The notes: generated by a model from the letters alone, not told the origin. A stretch of 64,000 nt of DNA from Bacteroidaceae bacterium (GCA_017555825.1 JAFZFQ010000046.1:8741-72740); one strand, 5' to 3'. Positions 1 to 7,562 are shown, counted from the stretch's first letter. Numbers and translations: made by a program.

Positions 1-483
1 AGGATAGTCGCTCTTGATGGGTGTGCCTTTGAGTTGGCGGTTGTAGGTGTCTATCACAGCCTTGAGCATGGCCTTGTCGTTGTCGTCGGCACGATAGCTA
101 CCCCCTTGCAATGCCATGTCTTTGTCGGTATTGACCGGTGTACTACCCGATATAAGGGTAGATATCAACATCTTGCCAAATGTGCGAAATCGCTCCGTTG
201 CACTCTTGTCGACGCGCTCAATGAGCACACCGAGTCGTTGGCGACCTATCTCCTTGATAGCAATGCGGCGACCCTCATCGTTCTTTTCGTCATAGAGAAC
301 AAGGCAAGCTCCCTCATATATGGTTATCATTTCGCTCTCATCGATATACTCTTTGGCTCGTATGGTGAGGTTCTTCTCGCCACGCGTCACTTTGCCATGA
401 ATGGTATATACGCGATATTCCTTGGCTTCGCATACCAGGGTTGCCAATATAGTGAGCAGTATATATAATGCTATACGTTTCAT
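1..483 (-). CDS. Exported hypothetical protein (partial, runs off window start); third gene of CHASE2-caspase operon
   Basis: Missing from ORF track because its stop is outside the window. Hand translation from ATG at 483: MKRIALYILLTILATLVCEAKEYRVYTIHGKVTRGEKNLTIRAKEYIDESEMITIYEGACLVLYDEK...MALQGGSYRADDNDKAMLKAVIDTYNRQLKGTPIKSDYP, open to base 1. Sec signal peptide; starts 7 bp after the caspase stop. Confidence 0.85.
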   Translation of the reverse strand, partial: MKRIALYILLTILATLVCEAKEYRVYTIHGKVTRGEKNLTIRAKEYIDESEMITIYEGACLVLYDEKNDEGRRIAIKEIGRQRLGVLIERVDKSATERFRTFGKMLISTLISGSTPVNTDKDMALQGGSYRADDNDKAMLKAVIDTYNRQLKGTPIKSDYP

Positions 484-490
484 AATGAGC

Positions 491-2905
491 TTATTTTATA
501 AACAGGGGGAAGTCTATCTCCTCGATGTTGCGATAGATGGGTTTCTGCTTGTTGCCGGTGAGTTGAGGGATGCGCTTCTCTAAATAGTTGCGCACCTCTA
601 TCACGGTAATGCGGTTGTCTTTGTCATGGTCCGACTTGTCAAACTCAAACGACTCGATAAGTGCTTGTGTAAAGATGCCATGCTTGTGCTCGGCCGACTC
701 GCGCGACTTGACATCCTTGCTGCTCGATGTGTATATGCACGTACCGTTGGGTGTGCTGTTCATTTCGCGGAAGAAGTTTTCGCTCGACACCGTGCCTCGG
801 TAGCCTTCGAGCAACTTGCCCGAGTAGCAAGCATCGATAAATACCAACAGCTTGCAGTTGATGTAACTTATATCTTCGACAAAGGTGCTTGAGCTGTATC
901 CGCCACGGCGAGGTGTAGAGGCATCGGTAACATTGTAGGTCGATAGGTAGTAGCGGTCGCGTTCGTCTACAAGTCCGTGTCCGGCAAAGAATATTACCGC
1001 CATATCACTTGCTGAGGCCTTGTCGGCCAGATAGTTGATTTTTTCCGAGATTTGGCTGCTTGTTACATCTTTGCCCACAAGCAGTTGGGCATCGATGTTG
1101 GCAAACGTATTTCTATGCTTCTTGCTTATGGCCTCTATCACGTCACGGGCGTCATTCTCGGCATAGCGCAGATTGCCCAAGTTGGGGTCTTGGTAGTCGT
1201 TGAGTCCAATGGCCAAGATGTAGAGGGTAGACGACTTGCGCACCGACTCCTCTCGATCGTAGCAATAGCGTATCATGTGGGGCTCGCCACCCACACACCA
1301 CATCGTGAGCATACAGTCGCGTTGAGGCAACTCTATCTCGCACACACCGGCCTTTACTTCCTCTTCCGATAGAGTTGCTGTCGCGCCTCCATCTATGCGG
1401 TACTTTATGGTATGCGATGCATCCGATATGGCAAATCGCACCTCTTGTCGTGTGTCGCTAAATGTAACCTGTTCGTCGGTGAGTACTTTCAACTTGGGTG
1501 CTTCAACTTTGGTTGTAAGGTGGCTTTCCAAGGCTTTTCTAATCTCCTCGGCCAGCTCTTGTTCGCTCCTTTGATTATTTTCTTCATAAACATACTCTGT
1601 GCTATATGAAGATACTCCGGTGAGGAGTGTTGGAAGTGACGGAGGAGGGTTGATACCTTTGGCACGTTCTTCTTCCAAATTTTCTAATGCCATTTGAGCT
1701 TCAATGTTTCCTTGGGCGGCAGCCATTTGCCACCACTTTTCGGCCTCATTCATGTCGTATGGCACGCCATTGGCTTGTGCGTAGCAATGTCCCAAGGCAT
1801 TTTGTGCTTCGGCCATTCCTTGTTCGGCTGCCATAAGATACCATTTAGCAGCCTCTTTGTAGTCTTGTTTTACACCATTTGCATAGTAATAGCAGTCTCC
1901 CAAATTGAGTTGTGCAGTAGCATATCCTTGCTCAGCAGCTTTGTAAAACCACTTCAAAGCCTGGGCAAAATCTTGCTTATAAAAGCCTTTTCCTTTGTAA
2001 TAATTCTCTCCGATGAGGTATGATGTGGGAGCGTTGGCATGTTCCGAAATCATATCCCACACTTCTTGAGATGGTAGCCAACCAAGCTCTAAAGCGTTCA
2101 GCCAACAATCAATAGCTTTGTCATAGCTTTTATCAGTTCCTTTTCCATCGTAATAGCAGTATCCTTTTTCTATCCATGCACGAAAGTCTCCTTGTTCGGC
2201 AGCTTTGGTAAATAATTCAAAAGCCTTTTTATAATCTTGTTTGGGACCACCTTCCTCTTCATAGAAATACCACAGACCAAGTTCAAATAAAGCAGTGGCA
2301 TGATTTTGTTTGGCTGCTTTTTTCAACCAATAAAGAGCTGTTTTTACGTCTTTTTTTACCCAACTATCTTCATAGAAAAGTCGGTACAGCCAATACAGGG
2401 CATTAGAATCTCCTTTATTTGCTGCTTTAAGAAGCCAACTATGGGCAATACTATAATATCCCTCCCAATCATCTCCTTTATAATAATAATCTATACCGAC
2501 TTCAGTTTGGGCTTCAAAGTTGCCTTGTAGAGCCTTTTGATAAATATCTAAATCAACCGTTACATATACAGATTCTTTTTCCGAAGCTGATAATATGGCA
2601 TCTACAAACATGTCTTTTTTTTCAATATAGACAGTCAGGTCTTTATATCCAATAAAACTTATTATAAGGGGGGTGTTGTCGGATACCTCTATCTTGAATT
2701 CGCCATTTATGTTGGTTACTGAACCAGATCCATTCTTTTGAGTAACAACTGCACCGATGATAGGTGTTCTGTTCTCATCGTAAACATATCCTGTAACGGC
2801 AATTTGTGCAATGCCTCTATATGCGAACATTACAAAAAATGCCACAAGTGTAATACGAAGCAAATTGCTGCCAATCAATATATTATGCAATGCTCTTTTT
2901 TTCAT
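491..2905 (-). CDS. Exported caspase-family (peptidase C14) protein: signal peptide, CarboxypepD_reg-like domain, 7 SEL1 repeats, Ig-like linker, caspase domain
   Basis: Catalytic motifs IFFAGHG and FIDACYSG; caspase N-terminal strand LYILAIGLNDY...NLRYAENDA; SEL1 repeats (e.g. AQLNLGDCYYYANGVKQDYKEAAKWYLMAAEQG); VTGYVYDENRTPIIGAVV...FIGYK resembles CarboxypepD_reg. Confidence 0.9.
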   Translation of the reverse strand: MKKRALHNILIGSNLLRITLVAFFVMFAYRGIAQIAVTGYVYDENRTPIIGAVVTQKNGSGSVTNINGEFKIEVSDNTPLIISFIGYKDLTVYIEKKDMFVDAILSASEKESVYVTVDLDIYQKALQGNFEAQTEVGIDYYYKGDDWEGYYSIAHSWLLKAANKGDSNALYWLYRLFYEDSWVKKDVKTALYWLKKAAKQNHATALFELGLWYFYEEEGGPKQDYKKAFELFTKAAEQGDFRAWIEKGYCYYDGKGTDKSYDKAIDCWLNALELGWLPSQEVWDMISEHANAPTSYLIGENYYKGKGFYKQDFAQALKWFYKAAEQGYATAQLNLGDCYYYANGVKQDYKEAAKWYLMAAEQGMAEAQNALGHCYAQANGVPYDMNEAEKWWQMAAAQGNIEAQMALENLEEERAKGINPPPSLPTLLTGVSSYSTEYVYEENNQRSEQELAEEIRKALESHLTTKVEAPKLKVLTDEQVTFSDTRQEVRFAISDASHTIKYRIDGGATATLSEEEVKAGVCEIELPQRDCMLTMWCVGGEPHMIRYCYDREESVRKSSTLYILAIGLNDYQDPNLGNLRYAENDARDVIEAISKKHRNTFANIDAQLLVGKDVTSSQISEKINYLADKASASDMAVIFFAGHGLVDERDRYYLSTYNVTDASTPRRGGYSSSTFVEDISYINCKLLVFIDACYSGKLLEGYRGTVSSENFFREMNSTPNGTCIYTSSSKDVKSRESAEHKHGIFTQALIESFEFDKSDHDKDNRITVIEVRNYLEKRIPQLTGNKQKPIYRNIEEIDFPLFIK

Positions 2906-4110
2906 TTTTTACATACCAATTTATTTTTCAAACTACACCACATTGTCTCAAATCTTTTTCTACAATCATCTTTCATAGCCATATACAGCTCTACCGTATT
3001 GGGTAGCATGGCCATGGCTGCCATGAGCAGTATGGGCGATACATAGCGGTGTGACGATATAAAGAGCCAACCGCTCAAACACACCACCAGCAGGGCTGTT
3101 GCTACGGGGTATATCCAGTTGAAAAAGGCCATGAGGAACTTGTAGTCGCGCCTTTGACAAGTCATAGATATGAGCCAATAGACAATCACAAATCCCCATA
3201 ACAAGAGTGCTTCAAGGGGCAATATCCATCCGTTCGATACTGTGCGAGTGGGGCGATCCAATAGCGTGTCTATGGTGTAGGCGTGTATTATTGTACCGTT
3301 CATCTTGCCCATAGGGGTGTAGTGGACATCCTCTTCGTTATTCACATTGCCCAACAGCACGATGCGACCCATTATCTCATCGGCATATAGGTGTAGTGAG
3401 TCGGCATTGATGATGCGAAATTTTTGTGGCATGAAATCTATTATACCATCGACTTGCTCGGGTGCGATGGCACTACCGCCAAACAACACTCTATAGCGTG
3501 ATGCCAGCACCGATGCAAATGAGCCCAATGTGTCGCCGGCTACTTTGCGCCACAGGGTGTAGTTGCGCACATATCCCCCTTCGCCTATGCTCTTGAGGTT
3601 GCTATAGGCACGATGGACGAGTTCATTGTCGAGTATCGATTGTGATGTGGACTCAAATTGCTGTGTCGCGTCGTTGTAGTTCAAGAGCTTGGTTATGGCT
3701 ACAAGGTTGTTGCCGTGGCGAGCCACTGTGTTTTGTAGTTGTTGAGTACCCAACGTGTCGCCTGTAGGGCGGTCGAAGATAATATCGATGCCCACTGTTG
3801 CCGGCTCATAGGTCATGAGCCCGTCTATGGTCGAGGCTATCTCGCCACGAGTCTTGTGTGAAGTGTCTATGATGACTATGCGGTCGTTGGGCTTGGCATT
3901 GTCGCTATTGCGATAGAGTGAATAGTAGAGATCGGTAAACGAGAAGCTATCGAACGATCGTGACACGGGGTCGAGCAACCCCCAATTGGGTAGCGCGAGC
4001 ATAAGCAGCGCGGCTATGGCGCCTATGAGCAGGGTAGATATGAGTGTGTGTATACATACCGACTTGGCATGTGTGCTCCGGCATGTGACGTTTCCTTCTT
4101 TGCTATCCAT
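2902..4110 (-). CDS. Stand-alone CHASE2-domain membrane protein
   Basis: N-terminal TM; CHASE2 motifs IVIIDT...R.EIA, VGIDIIF, RIVLLG...EDVHYTPMGKMNGTIIHAYTIDTLL; three C-terminal TM helices; only a short cytoplasmic tail. Overlaps caspase start by 4 bp (ATGA). Confidence 0.85.
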   Translation of the reverse strand: MDSKEGNVTCRSTHAKSVCIHTLISTLLIGAIAALLMLALPNWGLLDPVSRSFDSFSFTDLYYSLYRNSDNAKPNDRIVIIDTSHKTRGEIASTIDGLMTYEPATVGIDIIFDRPTGDTLGTQQLQNTVARHGNNLVAITKLLNYNDATQQFESTSQSILDNELVHRAYSNLKSIGEGGYVRNYTLWRKVAGDTLGSFASVLASRYRVLFGGSAIAPEQVDGIIDFMPQKFRIINADSLHLYADEIMGRIVLLGNVNNEEDVHYTPMGKMNGTIIHAYTIDTLLDRPTRTVSNGWILPLEALLLWGFVIVYWLISMTCQRRDYKFLMAFFNWIYPVATALLVVCLSGWLFISSHRYVSPILLMAAMAMLPNTVELYMAMKDDCRKRFETMWCSLKNKLVCKK

Positions 4111-4136
4111 CTAAAAAACTCAGATTTAACTTTCTG

Positions 4137-4144
4137 CAAAGTTA
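4137..4144 (-). promoter_or_regulatory. Bacteroidetes -7 promoter element (TAACTTTG) for CHASE2-caspase operon
   Basis: Matches TAnnTTTG, 26 bp upstream of the CHASE2 ATG. Confidence 0.55.
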
Positions 4145-4279
4145 ATAAGTTTATTGTAACAGTCAAGTATGTGCCTCTACTTATCGCTGTGTATGGACAG
4201 GTGGGTTGTAAAAAGGATTTCAAAAAACATAATAGACTTAAAAACTGTATAAATTTTTCTTATTGCCGTCAAGTTGTGT

Positions 4280-4355: not shown

Positions 4356-7300
4356 ATGAAACAGTACAATTTACTGAACACCGTGATGGGTTGGGTAGTA
4401 TTTGCTATAGCGGCAATTACCTATATCCTCACATTGGAACCTACAGCCAGCTTCTGGGACTGTGGTGAGTTTATTGCATCGGCATACAAGCTCGAAGTGG
4501 GTCACCCTCCCGGCAACCCCATCTTTATGCTTACGGGTCGTTTCTTTGCCAACTTTGCATCCGACCCCTCGCAAGTTGCTTATATGCTCAACTTGATGTC
4601 GGCTCTGTTGAGTGCCGCCACTATTTTGTTCCTATTCTGGACTATCACACACCTTGCCAAGAAATTGGTTGTGCCACAAGGTAAGGAAATGACCGTTGCC
4701 CGCATGATTACCATTTTGGCAAGTGGTCTTGTAGGTGCATTGGCCTATACTTGGAGCGACACATTCTGGTACTCGGCTGTTGAGGGTGAGGTATATGCCT
4801 ACTCTTCATTCTGTACAGCAGTGGTATTCTGGCTCATTCTCAAGTGGGAGAGTGTTGCCGACGAGCCCTACGCCAATCGCTTCCTCATTCTTATAGCCTA
4901 TATCATGGGTGTATCTATTGCGGTACACTTGCTCAACTTGTTGTGTATACCTGCCATTGTTTTGGTATATTACTATCGCAAGTTCAACAATATCAGTGCC
5001 AAGGGTTCGCTTGTAGCATTGGTGGTGTCGTTTGTCATCATAGCCTTGTTGCTCTTTGGTATCGTGCCCGGATTTGTTAAGGTGGCCGGTTGGTTTGAAC
5101 TCTTGTGTGTCAATGTATTGGGTATGCCCTATAATACAGGTGTTATGGTATACTTCTTGCTCACAATGGGTGTCATTGCATGGTCTATCTACGAGACATT
5201 CTCGGGCAAGAGTCTTGCACGAGCCCGTGTCCTATTCTTGGCAAGTATCATCCTCTCGGGTATGCCTTTTATTACCGACAATATCTTTGTCGGATTGGTA
5301 GTGTGTGCATTGCTTGTAGCGGCTGTAATGGTGGTCAAGAAGGTTTCGTTCCGCTTGATGAACACCGTTTTGGCCTGCTTGTTGGTGATACTCATTGGTT
5401 ACTCGTCGTATGCGCTCATCCTCATACGCTCGGCTGCCAATACGCCCATGGATCAAAACTCGCCCGAGGATATTTTCACTCTCGGTAGCTACCTCAACCG
5501 TGAGCAATATGGCGAGACTCCCCTCTTGTATGGCCAAACTTTTGTGTCGAAAGTGAAGCGTGTAAATGGCGAGGCTCAAATAAAAGAGGGTAAAAACATC
5601 TATCAAAAGGTCGTAAAAGCCAATCCCGACGAGCGCGATCGCTATGTGGTGACAGGCAAGAAAGAGACCTACATCTACGAGAGTGAGACACAAATGTTCT
5701 TCCCTCGCATGCACAGCAACAAGCCCACACATATATCGGCCTACCGCGAGTGGTCGGGTGCATCGGCGGCTGCCAAGCCTACATTTGCACAAAATATGCA
5801 GTTCTTCCTCGATTATCAGCTCAATCACATGTATTGGCGTTATTTCTTGTGGAACTTTGCCGGTCGTCAAAACGACTTGCAAGGCCATGGCGAGGTAGAC
5901 AAGGGCAACTGGATAAGTGGCATCAACTTTATCGACAAAATACGTGTAGGTGATGCATCGCTTTTGCCCGACGATATGGCCAACAATCCCGGCCGCAACG
6001 TATTCTATATGTTGCCTCTCATCTTGGGTATTATAGGTCTGCTATACCAAGCCTTCTCGGGCAAAAATGGTATTGAGCAGTTTTGGGTAACTTTCTTCCT
6101 CTTCTTCATGACAGGTATAGCCATTGTGATATACCTCAACCAAACACCCTATCAACCTCGTGAGCGCGACTATGCCTATGCCGGCTCGTTCTATGCCTAT
6201 ACGATATGGATAGGTTTGGGTGTGGCTGCGGTTACTCGTGGATTGGAGATAGCATTGGAGAAGATGCGCATTAACAACAAGGCTATTCCCGCTGTTGTAG
6301 CTGCGGTAGTGTGCTTGTGTGTGCCCTTGCAAATGGTGAGCCAAACATGGGACGACCACGATCGTTCGGGTCGCTATGTAGCTCGCGACTTTGGTATGAA
6401 CTACCTGTCGAGTGTCGAGCCCAATGCCATCATATTTACCAATGGCGACAACGATACCTTCCCCTTGTGGTATGCACAAGAGGTAGAGGGTTTCCGCACC
6501 GATGTGCGTGTATGTAACCTCTCATACTTCCAAACCGATTGGTATGCCGATCAGATGAAGCGTCCCGCTTACGAGTCGGCACCCCTGCCCATCTCGGCTT
6601 CGCGCGATGTATATGCCCACGACAAGTTGTCGTATGCCTATATATTGCCCGTAAACGAAAATCTATCGCTCTCGGCAACCGATGCCCTCGACTTCTTGTA
6701 TAGCAAGGATCCCCGCACCAAGAAGACTCAATATGGCGAGTTGAACTACTTGCCTACCAACAAGATTTATATTTCGGTCGATAGCGCTACAGCCTTGGCT
6801 CGTGCCGGTATGCCTGCCGGATATGAAGATTGTGTGGTAGATCGCATCTATCCCAAGTTGAGCGGTAAGAGTGGCCTTTACTTCTATGAGGTTGCCGCAT
6901 TGGATATGATCAATACCAACATCCAACAAGGCTGGGAACGTCCTATCTACTATGCAGTAACTGTGTCGAACGACCTCTATTTGGGTCTTGAAGATTACTT
7001 TGCACTCACCGGCTTGGCACAACATGTAGTGCCTATGAAGACCGAGGCTTGTGGCGGTGTCGATACCGAGCGCATGTATGACAACATGATGAACAAGTTC
7101 CGTTGGGGTGGCTTGGAGGCTGCTACCGAGGAGAATCCTATATATCTCGATGAGAATATACGTCGCATGTGTCAAACAACTCGTGTAATGTTCAACAATC
7201 TTGTTGAGCAGCTCATTGTCGAGGGTGAGAATGAGAAGGCTATCAAGGCCCTCGATTTCATTAGCGACAAGATGCCCGGTTGGTTGATTCCCTACGAGGC

Positions 7301-7562
7301 ATTGGCAATACAGATGGCCAACAGCTACTTCACTCTTGGCGAGTATGACAAAGCCAAAGAGTTGCTTGTCGACAACATCAATCGTAGCTTGCAATACATT
7401 CGTTGGTTCAAGACACTTACACCTTCGCAATATCGCTCGGTAAGTGACAAGGAGCTACACCAATATGTCATGCAAGCCGGCTTGACTCTCTTGTATGAGA
7501 ATGGCATGCAACAGGTTGCCGAAGATATTGTTGCCGAGGCGCAAGCCAACGGTATTTTATAA
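4356..7562 (+). CDS. DUF2723 / TMEM260-like multi-pass GT-C glycosyltransferase
   Basis: SFWDCGEFIASAYKLEVGHPPGNP motif, SAVEGEVYA, many TM helices, QPRERDYAY and NGDNDTFPLWY motifs typical of Bacteroidetes DUF2723 proteins. Confidence 0.85.
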   Translation: MKQYNLLNTVMGWVVFAIAAITYILTLEPTASFWDCGEFIASAYKLEVGHPPGNPIFMLTGRFFANFASDPSQVAYMLNLMSALLSAATILFLFWTITHLAKKLVVPQGKEMTVARMITILASGLVGALAYTWSDTFWYSAVEGEVYAYSSFCTAVVFWLILKWESVADEPYANRFLILIAYIMGVSIAVHLLNLLCIPAIVLVYYYRKFNNISAKGSLVALVVSFVIIALLLFGIVPGFVKVAGWFELLCVNVLGMPYNTGVMVYFLLTMGVIAWSIYETFSGKSLARARVLFLASIILSGMPFITDNIFVGLVVCALLVAAVMVVKKVSFRLMNTVLACLLVILIGYSSYALILIRSAANTPMDQNSPEDIFTLGSYLNREQYGETPLLYGQTFVSKVKRVNGEAQIKEGKNIYQKVVKANPDERDRYVVTGKKETYIYESETQMFFPRMHSNKPTHISAYREWSGASAAAKPTFAQNMQFFLDYQLNHMYWRYFLWNFAGRQNDLQGHGEVDKGNWISGINFIDKIRVGDASLLPDDMANNPGRNVFYMLPLILGIIGLLYQAFSGKNGIEQFWVTFFLFFMTGIAIVIYLNQTPYQPRERDYAYAGSFYAYTIWIGLGVAAVTRGLEIALEKMRINNKAIPAVVAAVVCLCVPLQMVSQTWDDHDRSGRYVARDFGMNYLSSVEPNAIIFTNGDNDTFPLWYAQEVEGFRTDVRVCNLSYFQTDWYADQMKRPAYESAPLPISASRDVYAHDKLSYAYILPVNENLSLSATDALDFLYSKDPRTKKTQYGELNYLPTNKIYISVDSATALARAGMPAGYEDCVVDRIYPKLSGKSGLYFYEVAALDMINTNIQQGWERPIYYAVTVSNDLYLGLEDYFALTGLAQHVVPMKTEACGGVDTERMYDNMMNKFRWGGLEAATEENPIYLDENIRRMCQTTRVMFNNLVEQLIVEGENEKAIKALDFISDKMPGWLIPYEALAIQMANSYFTLGEYDKAKELLVDNINRSLQYIRWFKTLTPSQYRSVSDKELHQYVMQAGLTLLYENGMQQVAEDIVAEAQANGIL

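Follow-up and report, generated by a model that had tools for sequence, protein, structure and literature searches.

Caspase-like proteases of clan CD have been found linked to a CHASE2 domain with one plus three transmembrane (TM) helices in single-chain fusions, such as the metacaspase-CHASE2 protein of Trichodesmium erythraeum and the EACC2-caspase-CHASE2 proteins (PMC3501461, PMC2853523, PMC8195603). The caspase of those fusions is N-terminal to TM1 and is predicted to be cytoplasmic, as the intracellular output of a receptor. Here we describe a locus of a Bacteroidaceae bacterium at the left end of a stretch of 64,000 nucleotides (GCA_017555825.1 JAFZFQ010000046.1:8741-72740; contig C32 8741-72740 of a 2.09-Mb assembly in 70 contigs), hereafter called the window. 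The locus encodes a CHASE2 membrane protein, a caspase-like protease with Sel1 repeats and a small exported partner. In contrast to the described fusions, the caspase has a predicted signal peptide of its own, and in P0057, a natural fusion protein from a related organism, it follows a fifth TM segment, on the same predicted periplasmic side as CHASE2. We propose, with a probability of roughly 55%, that the three-gene module is autonomous and acts wholly outside the cytoplasm, its output being periplasmic proteolysis, plausibly of the partner.

Several other described systems resemble the locus in part. A count from 2012 already covered Sel1-metacaspase architectures as well as N-terminal TM or signal segments (PMC3501461). 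Burkholderia has the LysM-FecR protein "BiofilmReg" with a CHASE2 histidine kinase, and S. meliloti has the CHASE2 cyclases CyaD1, CyaD2 and CyaK (PMC5192318, PMC13001267). As at the present locus, the CHASE2 membrane protein is encoded there beside a small exported protein, but those receptors have a kinase or cyclase output and a recognizable FecR or LysM partner, neither of which is found here. Genomic island 15 of Psychroflexus torquis is likewise a Bacteroidota cluster of signal-peptide metacaspases and CHASE2, with secreted WD40-metacaspases and a CHASE2-family protein (PMC3914696, Fig. 9). However, that island spans 35 kb, contains four WD40 metacaspases and was only drawn, without analysis, and loosely tied to programmed cell death; the paper names neither a partner protein nor an output-less state and proposes no topology or mechanism (PMC3914696).

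An analogy of mechanism, and of mechanism only, is offered by the type III-E CRISPR Craspase, in which the TPR-CHAT protease Csx29 cuts Csx30, a protein whose C-terminal domain is in some cases DUF4384 (bioRxiv 10.1101/2022.08.17.504292). There too a repeat-bearing caspase-like protease is encoded with a two-domain substrate that has a conserved N-domain and a variable C-domain and is cut in a flexible linker. Craspase is cytoplasmic, RNA-guided and sigma-factor-linked, whereas the present cassette is free of Cas genes. The LapD-LapG-LapA and ExoR-ExoS-ChvI systems also couple an inner-membrane receptor to a periplasmic protease or Sel1 protein, and ExoR, itself a Sel1 protein, is under proteolytic regulation (PMC4550343). 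LapD, however, reads cytoplasmic cyclic di-GMP, LapG is transglutaminase-like and ExoS is a kinase, and the present locus encodes no member of these families, with only a weak likeness to ExoR, at the level of the Sel1 repeats (E 0.0036). Finally, the gingipains of Porphyromonas (clan CD, C25) are exported, Arg/Lys-specific caspase-fold proteases of Bacteroidales, as the present enzyme would be if its inferred specificity is correct. They are secreted by the type IX secretion system (T9SS) via a C-terminal domain and target host proteins, whereas the protease described here is a C14 protein without such a domain and is tied to CHASE2. In the literature that we searched, we found no paper pairing CHASE2 with "CHAT domain", no periplasmic orthocaspase system and no functional study of the module.

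The CHASE2 protein, the protease and the partner

The CHASE2 protein matched the Pfam CHASE2 family (PF05226) with 71 bits, against a cut-off of 26.3, over profile positions 53-254 of 257. Its predicted topology comprises TM1 (residues ~20-42), a periplasmic domain and three more TM helices (~294-378). Hydropathy analysis picked out residues 15-47, 294-319 and 325-354 and, less clearly, a fourth segment, and the AlphaFold2 (AF2) model (predicted local distance difference test [pLDDT] 81.5) contains helices at 5-42, 293-320, 324-353 and 360-401 and a periplasmic domain of alpha/beta type. Both termini are rich in Lys and Arg. A preliminary description of the locus, made from the window alone, had held that the protein lacks a kinase, cyclase or GGDEF output; indeed, the frame stops 24 residues past the last TM helix and Pfam showed no such C-terminal domain. 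All the invariant residues of CHASE2 alignment A2 lie within the periplasmic domain, and the polar residues R88, D109 and D261 are invariant even across very distant homologues. The TM helices and the cytoplasmic tail, which is short and variable in length, have no conserved columns in this alignment. A Foldseek search of the AF2 model against the PDB gave nothing significant (best E 0.38). Together, these features show a CHASE2 protein with a predicted anchor in the inner membrane, a conserved domain on the periplasmic side and no cytoplasmic signalling domain.

The protease had been pictured as exported and catalytically competent, and nothing in our analysis points to a cytoplasmic or inactive enzyme: its N-terminus (MKKR...AYRGIA/Q) resembles a signal peptide by hydropathy, and the His643/Cys693 dyad is intact. 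Pfam identified six Sel1 repeats (142.7 bits), Peptidase_C14 (56.2 bits, cut-off 21.4) and CarbopepD_reg_2 (40.2 bits), the last being a domain that the preliminary description had not listed. Among PDB sequences, the protease matched Sel1 proteins and the SusC homologues in their N-terminal domain; the isolated caspase domain matched no PDB sequence even at E <= 10, so the PDB offers no structural anchor for its residues. GHG, D-x-C and the Asp of A-x-(N/K)-D-A are common to the ten aligned caspase domains from CHASE2 loci. D585 and D691 may correspond to the two S1 Asp residues of metacaspases, as in the TbMCA2 structure, which give Arg/Lys specificity, and the protease may be Arg/Lys-specific like metacaspases and orthocaspases. 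An xR(G/S) motif follows the catalytic Cys at a distance of 8-12 residues in 8 of the 10 proteases; here it is EGYR/G, at which the enzyme may process itself. None of the three proteins contains the T9SS sorting domain Por_Secre_tail (PF18962) according to Pfam. The protease does not belong to the EACC1 type, since it scored 88 bits against a cut-off of 140 with the NCBIfam model caspase_w_EACC1 (NF047832), and the cassette holds no EACC1-type gene and no EACC1 or EACC2 module. The caspase and immunoglobulin (Ig)-like parts are ~88% identical between species, compared to 67% for the CHASE2 protein and 59% for the partner. The number of Sel1 repeats varies both between and within species, giving proteases of 804, 964 and 1072 amino acids, the latter two from contigs of one species.

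The third gene had also been credited with a signal peptide, and the N-terminus of the partner (MKR...VCEA/K) resembles one by hydropathy. The AF2 model of the partner (pLDDT 84.5) consists of the signal peptide, a beta domain (residues 22-83), a helix (84-112), a disordered segment (115-131, with pLDDT below 50), a second helix (134-151) and a beta-sandwich (162-290); compared with the PDB by Foldseek, it gave nothing significant, the best matches being generic beta-sandwiches (E 4.6e-3). Only 31 relatives of the partner emerged when 1.8 billion representative proteins were searched exhaustively, and a word-indexed profile search for distant partners added only close relatives and paralogues, which are called "hypothetical protein" where they are named. 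The N-terminal module matched no Pfam family in 27 aligned members or in 10 distant partners. DUF4384 (PF14326) matched the sandwich in 11 of the 27 family members (best E 2.5e-6) but not in the window's own partner at E <= 1. In the family, conservation reaches at least 90% at only 7 positions, among them R131, which ends the disordered segment. Among 17 divergent partners (16 from 15 of the CHASE2 loci described below, plus the one of locus L008), 15 have a basic residue at this point, 14 of them Arg and 1 Lys, and the detectable similarity of the N-module in distant partners ends just past it.

The preliminary description had noted that CHASE2 tends to sit beside FecR-like, DUF928 or CHAT/caspase genes, but the partner is not detectably FecR-like: hmmscan found no FecR (PF04773) match in the 27 members at E <= 1 or in the 10 distant partners, and an hhalign comparison of the N-domain with six Bacteroidales FecR proteins gave a probability of 3.2%. 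As a separate observation, FecR was absent at E <= 1e-5 from the bacterium's own genome and from four congeners, while another Bacteroidales genome has six; the genus may be devoid of FecR-type anti-sigma factors.

The three genes are all on the minus strand and as tightly coupled as had been reported, with a 4-bp overlap (ATGA) of the CHASE2 and caspase genes at 2902-2905 and a 7-bp gap before the partner gene at 484-490. The partner gene, open at the edge of the window, was completed from the left flank; it encodes 293 amino acids at C32 8342-9223 and runs 399 bp beyond the window. The element TAACTTTG is present ahead of the operon, as described before. TAnnTTTG occurs 66 times in the window, compared to 42.6 ± 6.3 in shuffled sequences, and because of this enrichment we consider the motif real in the host genome; a single TAACTTTG site is nevertheless weak evidence for a promoter. 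The G+C content dips to 34-38% at 2001-3000, versus about 47-52% on either side, a stretch that takes in the end of the CHASE2 gene and, within the caspase gene, the CarbopepD_reg and initial Sel1 regions.

Inheritance of the cassette and recurrence in the Bacteroidales

The CHASE2 triad is present, at the same site and in synteny, in 5 of 14 congeners; records of the genus originate from sheep, goat and water-deer gut. In three others (G009, G007 and G012) the site is cleanly empty and two core genes are directly adjacent. Comparison by blastn placed the limits of the cassette at the stop codon of the partner gene and ~110 bp upstream of the CHASE2 start: homology to the empty sites resumes at C32 12961, which is window position 4221, so the right boundary is at ~4220. 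The cassette thus consists of the putative promoter and the three genes, 4.6 kb between two core genes, and TAACTTTG falls inside the DNA missing from the empty sites. Promoter and genes form one unit of inheritance. Plasmid and phage searches returned no homologues, and neither repeats nor a target duplication were visible at its ends; we therefore rejected an origin from a mobile element.

The preliminary description had assumed that no cytoplasmic output partner of CHASE2 is encoded just outside the window. The neighboring gene on the left encodes a cytoplasmic protein of 161 amino acids that might have been a hidden output, but we excluded it because the boundary of the cassette is at the partner stop codon; this open reading frame (ORF) is core and occurs in each of the 14 congeners, whether or not they have the cassette.

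CHASE2 proteins were then sought with Pfam in an order sample of 401 genomes from 236 genera, which yielded 22 genes in 20 genomes. Apart from two fragments, their frames span 395-466 amino acids, and all 22 are without an output domain. As the frames in the order reach at most 466 amino acids, against 715-845 in other classes of the phylum, the output-less CHASE2 proteins are a distinct subfamily, which is the sole form in the order sample and hence no peculiarity of the window locus. Bacteroides thetaiotaomicron, included as a control genome, had no CHASE2 match. Related-locus searches with the single CHASE2 protein found nothing, and with the narrow alignment A3 only congeners and one distant metagenome-assembled genome.

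Nineteen CHASE2 loci were retrieved, 13 at first and six later. At every one of the first 13, an exported protein of 255-316 amino acids with the partner N-module is encoded directly beside CHASE2, usually with overlapping genes, and 11 of the 13 have neighbors of protease type (Table 1). Of the later six, two have a partner module detectable by profile, three have an unmatched small gene beside CHASE2 (two of the three products begin with a signal-peptide-like segment) and one is a fragment at a contig end. The co-occurrence proposed in the preliminary description thus extends from the syntenic triads of the congeners to CHASE2-only genes beside partner-like and exported caspase or CHAT genes across the order. 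Where the protease is without DUF4384, the partner has this domain or, at the window locus, a sandwich that resembles it; this applies to the window, fusion and WG-caspase loci and to both CHAT loci. Where the partner is without it, DUF4384 is found in the protease or is encoded by a neighboring gene. This complementary distribution fits one complex.

The bacterium's own genome has a second, paralogous triad, on contig C18, which encodes a 196-amino-acid exported protein, a TPR-CHAT protease with a signal peptide (943 amino acids), a CHASE2-only protein (405 amino acids) and a partner (284 amino acids); its CHASE2 protein is 24% identical to that of the window. A related metagenomic organism has CHASE2 and caspase joined in a single protein of 899 amino acids, which is present in two independent assemblies. 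At the joint, RKR-AAIIIALLATAASANA ahead of D appears to be a former signal peptide kept as a fifth TM or signal segment, and the positive-inside rule predicts that the CarbopepD_reg, Ig-like and caspase part is periplasmic. A partner homologue with 31% identity is encoded after the fused gene. The fusion supports a physical unit on the putative periplasmic face.

Two further loci show additional features. Downstream of the fusion and its partner, L020 7925-9106 encodes a 393-amino-acid protein without a signal peptide or recorded Pfam match, followed by a 4TM-phosphoesterase. At G406:C44:90994-91680 (L055 7779-8942), the CHASE2 gene is split by an in-frame TAA into ORFs of 133 and 156 amino acids; the adjacent partner gene is intact and there is no protease gene nearby, and this is possibly a decaying copy.

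Table 1. Features of the locus, its flanks and related loci (window coordinates unless a contig or locus is named; aa, amino acids)
Feature	Position	Strand	Basis or remark
CHASE2-only inner-membrane protein, 402 aa	2902..4110	-	Pfam CHASE2, hydropathy, AF2 model
CHASE2 protein TM1	3985-4053	-	predicted (hydropathy, AF2)
CHASE2 periplasmic domain	3232-3984	-	predicted
CHASE2 protein, three TM helices	2977-3231	-	predicted (hydropathy, AF2)
CHASE2 protein, 24-aa basic cytoplasmic tail	2905-2976	-	predicted
Exported caspase-like protease, 804 aa	491..2905	-	Pfam, NCBIfam, PDB sequence matches
Caspase signal peptide	2807-2905	-	predicted
Caspase CarbopepD_reg-like domain	2606-2797	-	Pfam
Caspase Sel1 repeats	1670-2482	-	Pfam
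Caspase linker and Ig-like region	1241-1669	-	
Caspase Peptidase_C14 domain	494-1240	-	Pfam
Catalytic His643 codon (FFAGHG)	977..979	-	kept in 10/10 aligned caspase domains of CHASE2 loci
D691-A-C693 (catalytic Cys C693 at 827-829, IDACYSG)	827..835	-	D-x-C in 10/10 aligned domains
D585 (AENDA)	1151-1153	-	conserved Asp of A-x-(N/K)-D-A motif
Arg703 (EGYR/G), candidate autoprocessing site, 10 residues after catalytic Cys	797..799	-	motif recurrence
First 161 codons of 293-aa exported partner	1..483	-	ORF, AF2 model; beta-sandwich outside window
Partner Arg131 codon (QGGSYR/A), candidate cleavage or recognition site	91..93	-	conservation at disordered linker end
TAACTTTG, candidate Bacteroidetes-type -7 promoter element	4137..4144	-	sequence; 26 nt upstream of CHASE2 ATG
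Cassette-specific upstream region	4111..4220	-	blastn, empty-site loci of three congeners vs own region
Core ORF, 161 aa, no Pfam match, signal peptide or TM	C32 7783-8268, 73 bp left of partner	-	77-95% identity, 14/14 congeners
TMEM260-like protein O-mannosyltransferase homologue, 1068 aa, C-terminal TPR	4356-7562	+	core in 14/14; divergent right flank
Second triad, own genome	C18 18419-23961 (L019 6419-11961)	-	paralogous; also congeners G009, G011
Exported Peptidase_C14 with DUF4384, 666-695 aa	neighbors among 13 loci		
Exported Peptidase_C14 with WG repeats, 580 aa	neighbor among 13 loci		
Exported Peptidase_C14 with WD40 repeats, 1134 aa	neighbor among 13 loci		
TPR-CHAT protein, 943 aa	neighbor among 13 loci		
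S8 subtilase and separate DUF4384 protein	one locus among 13		

Proposed mechanism and competing explanations

In the mechanism that we propose, the CHASE2 protein and the small partner would form a constant receptor pair, and the Sel1-repeat caspase would be the enzymatic output, held at the membrane or regulated by this pair, with its Sel1 repeats serving as a variable binding surface. The three proteins would make up one periplasm-facing complex. On sensing, the putatively Arg/Lys-specific protease would cut the partner where the disordered linker ends, just after the conserved basic residue, and so separate the N-module from the DUF4384-like beta-sandwich; it may also process itself at EGYR/G. 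The result would be a periplasmic proteolytic event instead of phosphorylation or a second messenger. Cleavage of the partner is proposed because R131 hardly varies although the segment to which it belongs has a pLDDT below 50, because the conservation of the N-module stops just after it, and because the protease keeps the His, the Cys, both presumed S1 Asp residues and an xRG after the Cys. By analogy, DUF4384 also ends some Csx30 substrates. The idea of wholly extracytoplasmic signalling, put forward in the preliminary description, gains from the lack of an output in or beside CHASE2, from the predicted export of the caspase and from the fusion on the predicted periplasmic side; a FecR-like nature of the partner is not supported.

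Some points weigh against this mechanism. One CHASE2 locus has an S8 subtilase in place of the caspase, and three genomes of one genus have a CHASE2-partner pair without an adjacent protease; because the pair occurs on its own, the protease may be accessory rather than an obligatory output. Export and topology were predicted from hydropathy, from domain precedent and by the positive-inside rule, and the conserved Arg could have a role in binding or structure instead of marking a cleavage site. Neither AF2 model, of the partner or of the CHASE2 protein, matches the PDB significantly, and hence neither gives a functional hint.

Other explanations differ mainly in what the proteolysis is for and where the signal goes. 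The cassette is a patchy accessory element, found in 5 of 14 species with clean indels, a 2.1-Mb genome contains two paralogous systems, and the number of Sel1 repeats changes within one species (1072 versus 964 amino acids) while the caspase domain is ~88% identical. The architecture also parallels the repeat-plus-caspase or repeat-plus-CHAT proteases of the gasdermin systems and of Craspase (for the latter, bioRxiv 10.1101/2022.08.17.504292). These features would suit envelope-level defence, abortive infection or inter-bacterial conflict, in which the repeats would sense an invader or damage and the caspase would destroy envelope proteins. Such a role is compatible with the mechanism proposed above, and we rate it as possible but rather unlikely: PADLOC-DB 2.0 gave only a generic "caspase" match to the protease (E 1.7e-9), neither defence genes nor an integrase or transposase lie beside the cassette, whose flanks are housekeeping genes, no homologues were found on phages or plasmids, and the known caspase-type defence proteases are cytoplasmic. 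A known defence system was rejected on the PADLOC-DB 2.0 models, to which the CHASE2 protein, the partner and the paralogous proteins had no match at all. A defence or communication role of the cassette is speculation.

We have greater doubts about a housekeeping or nutritional protease, gingipain-like, periplasmic and Arg/Lys-specific, that would sense nothing and would have CHASE2 as its anchor or maturation factor and the partner as its chaperone or inhibitor. Exported clan-CD Arg/Lys proteases, the gingipains, are well established in Bacteroidales, one related protease has a weak Peptidase_C25 match, and periplasmic scaffolds and SusC N-termini often contain Sel1 and CarbopepD_reg domains. 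However, the protease has no T9SS C-terminal domain, so it would not be secreted for feeding, the invariant R88, D109 and D261 of CHASE2 point beyond mere anchoring, and the distribution is sporadic. It is more improbable still that the CHASE2-partner pair signals to the cytoplasm by lateral intramembrane contact with an unlinked kinase, cyclase or anti-sigma factor and that the protease only conditions the ligand. The longer CHASE2 proteins of other classes of the phylum (715-845 amino acids) do have room for an output domain, and there are known cases of a CHASE2 kinase that is encoded with a periplasmic partner protein (PMC5192318). But the cassette has no candidate in it or beside it, its boundaries exclude the neighbors, the TM helices and tail are without conserved columns, and the bacterium's genome has no FecR-type anti-sigma match.

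Proteolysis by an autonomous extracytoplasmic module is the reading that we prefer. More tentatively, and with clearly less confidence than in that reading, we suggest that the ligand of this CHASE2 subfamily is the N-module of the obligate exported partner, that its binding or release is set by an Arg-specific exported caspase or CHAT protease with cue-sensing repeats, and that the output is proteolysis at the membrane.

Implications for CHASE2 and exported caspases

Judged by its genes and their relatives, the module is real and conserved and appears to be extracytoplasmic, and it is built from known families. Bacterial caspase homologues have mostly been discussed as cytoplasmic proteases of cell death or defence. 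CHASE2 is a widespread sensor domain, and we know of no defined ligand and no solved structure for it. The module would join the two on the outer face of the inner membrane with every cytoplasmic output removed, and it offers a simple three-protein system in which CHASE2 binding and the function of an exported caspase could be addressed. The conserved basic residue in the disordered linker of the partner makes the idea directly and cheaply testable, and the clean presence or absence of the cassette within one genus provides natural, isogenic-like comparisons. In the gut and rumen setting of these Bacteroidales, envelope proteolysis could affect phage resistance, competition or interaction with the host. 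If the N-module of the partner is indeed the CHASE2 ligand, the module would represent a class of envelope signalling or cell-fate system not described before and would give CHASE2 its first defined partner.

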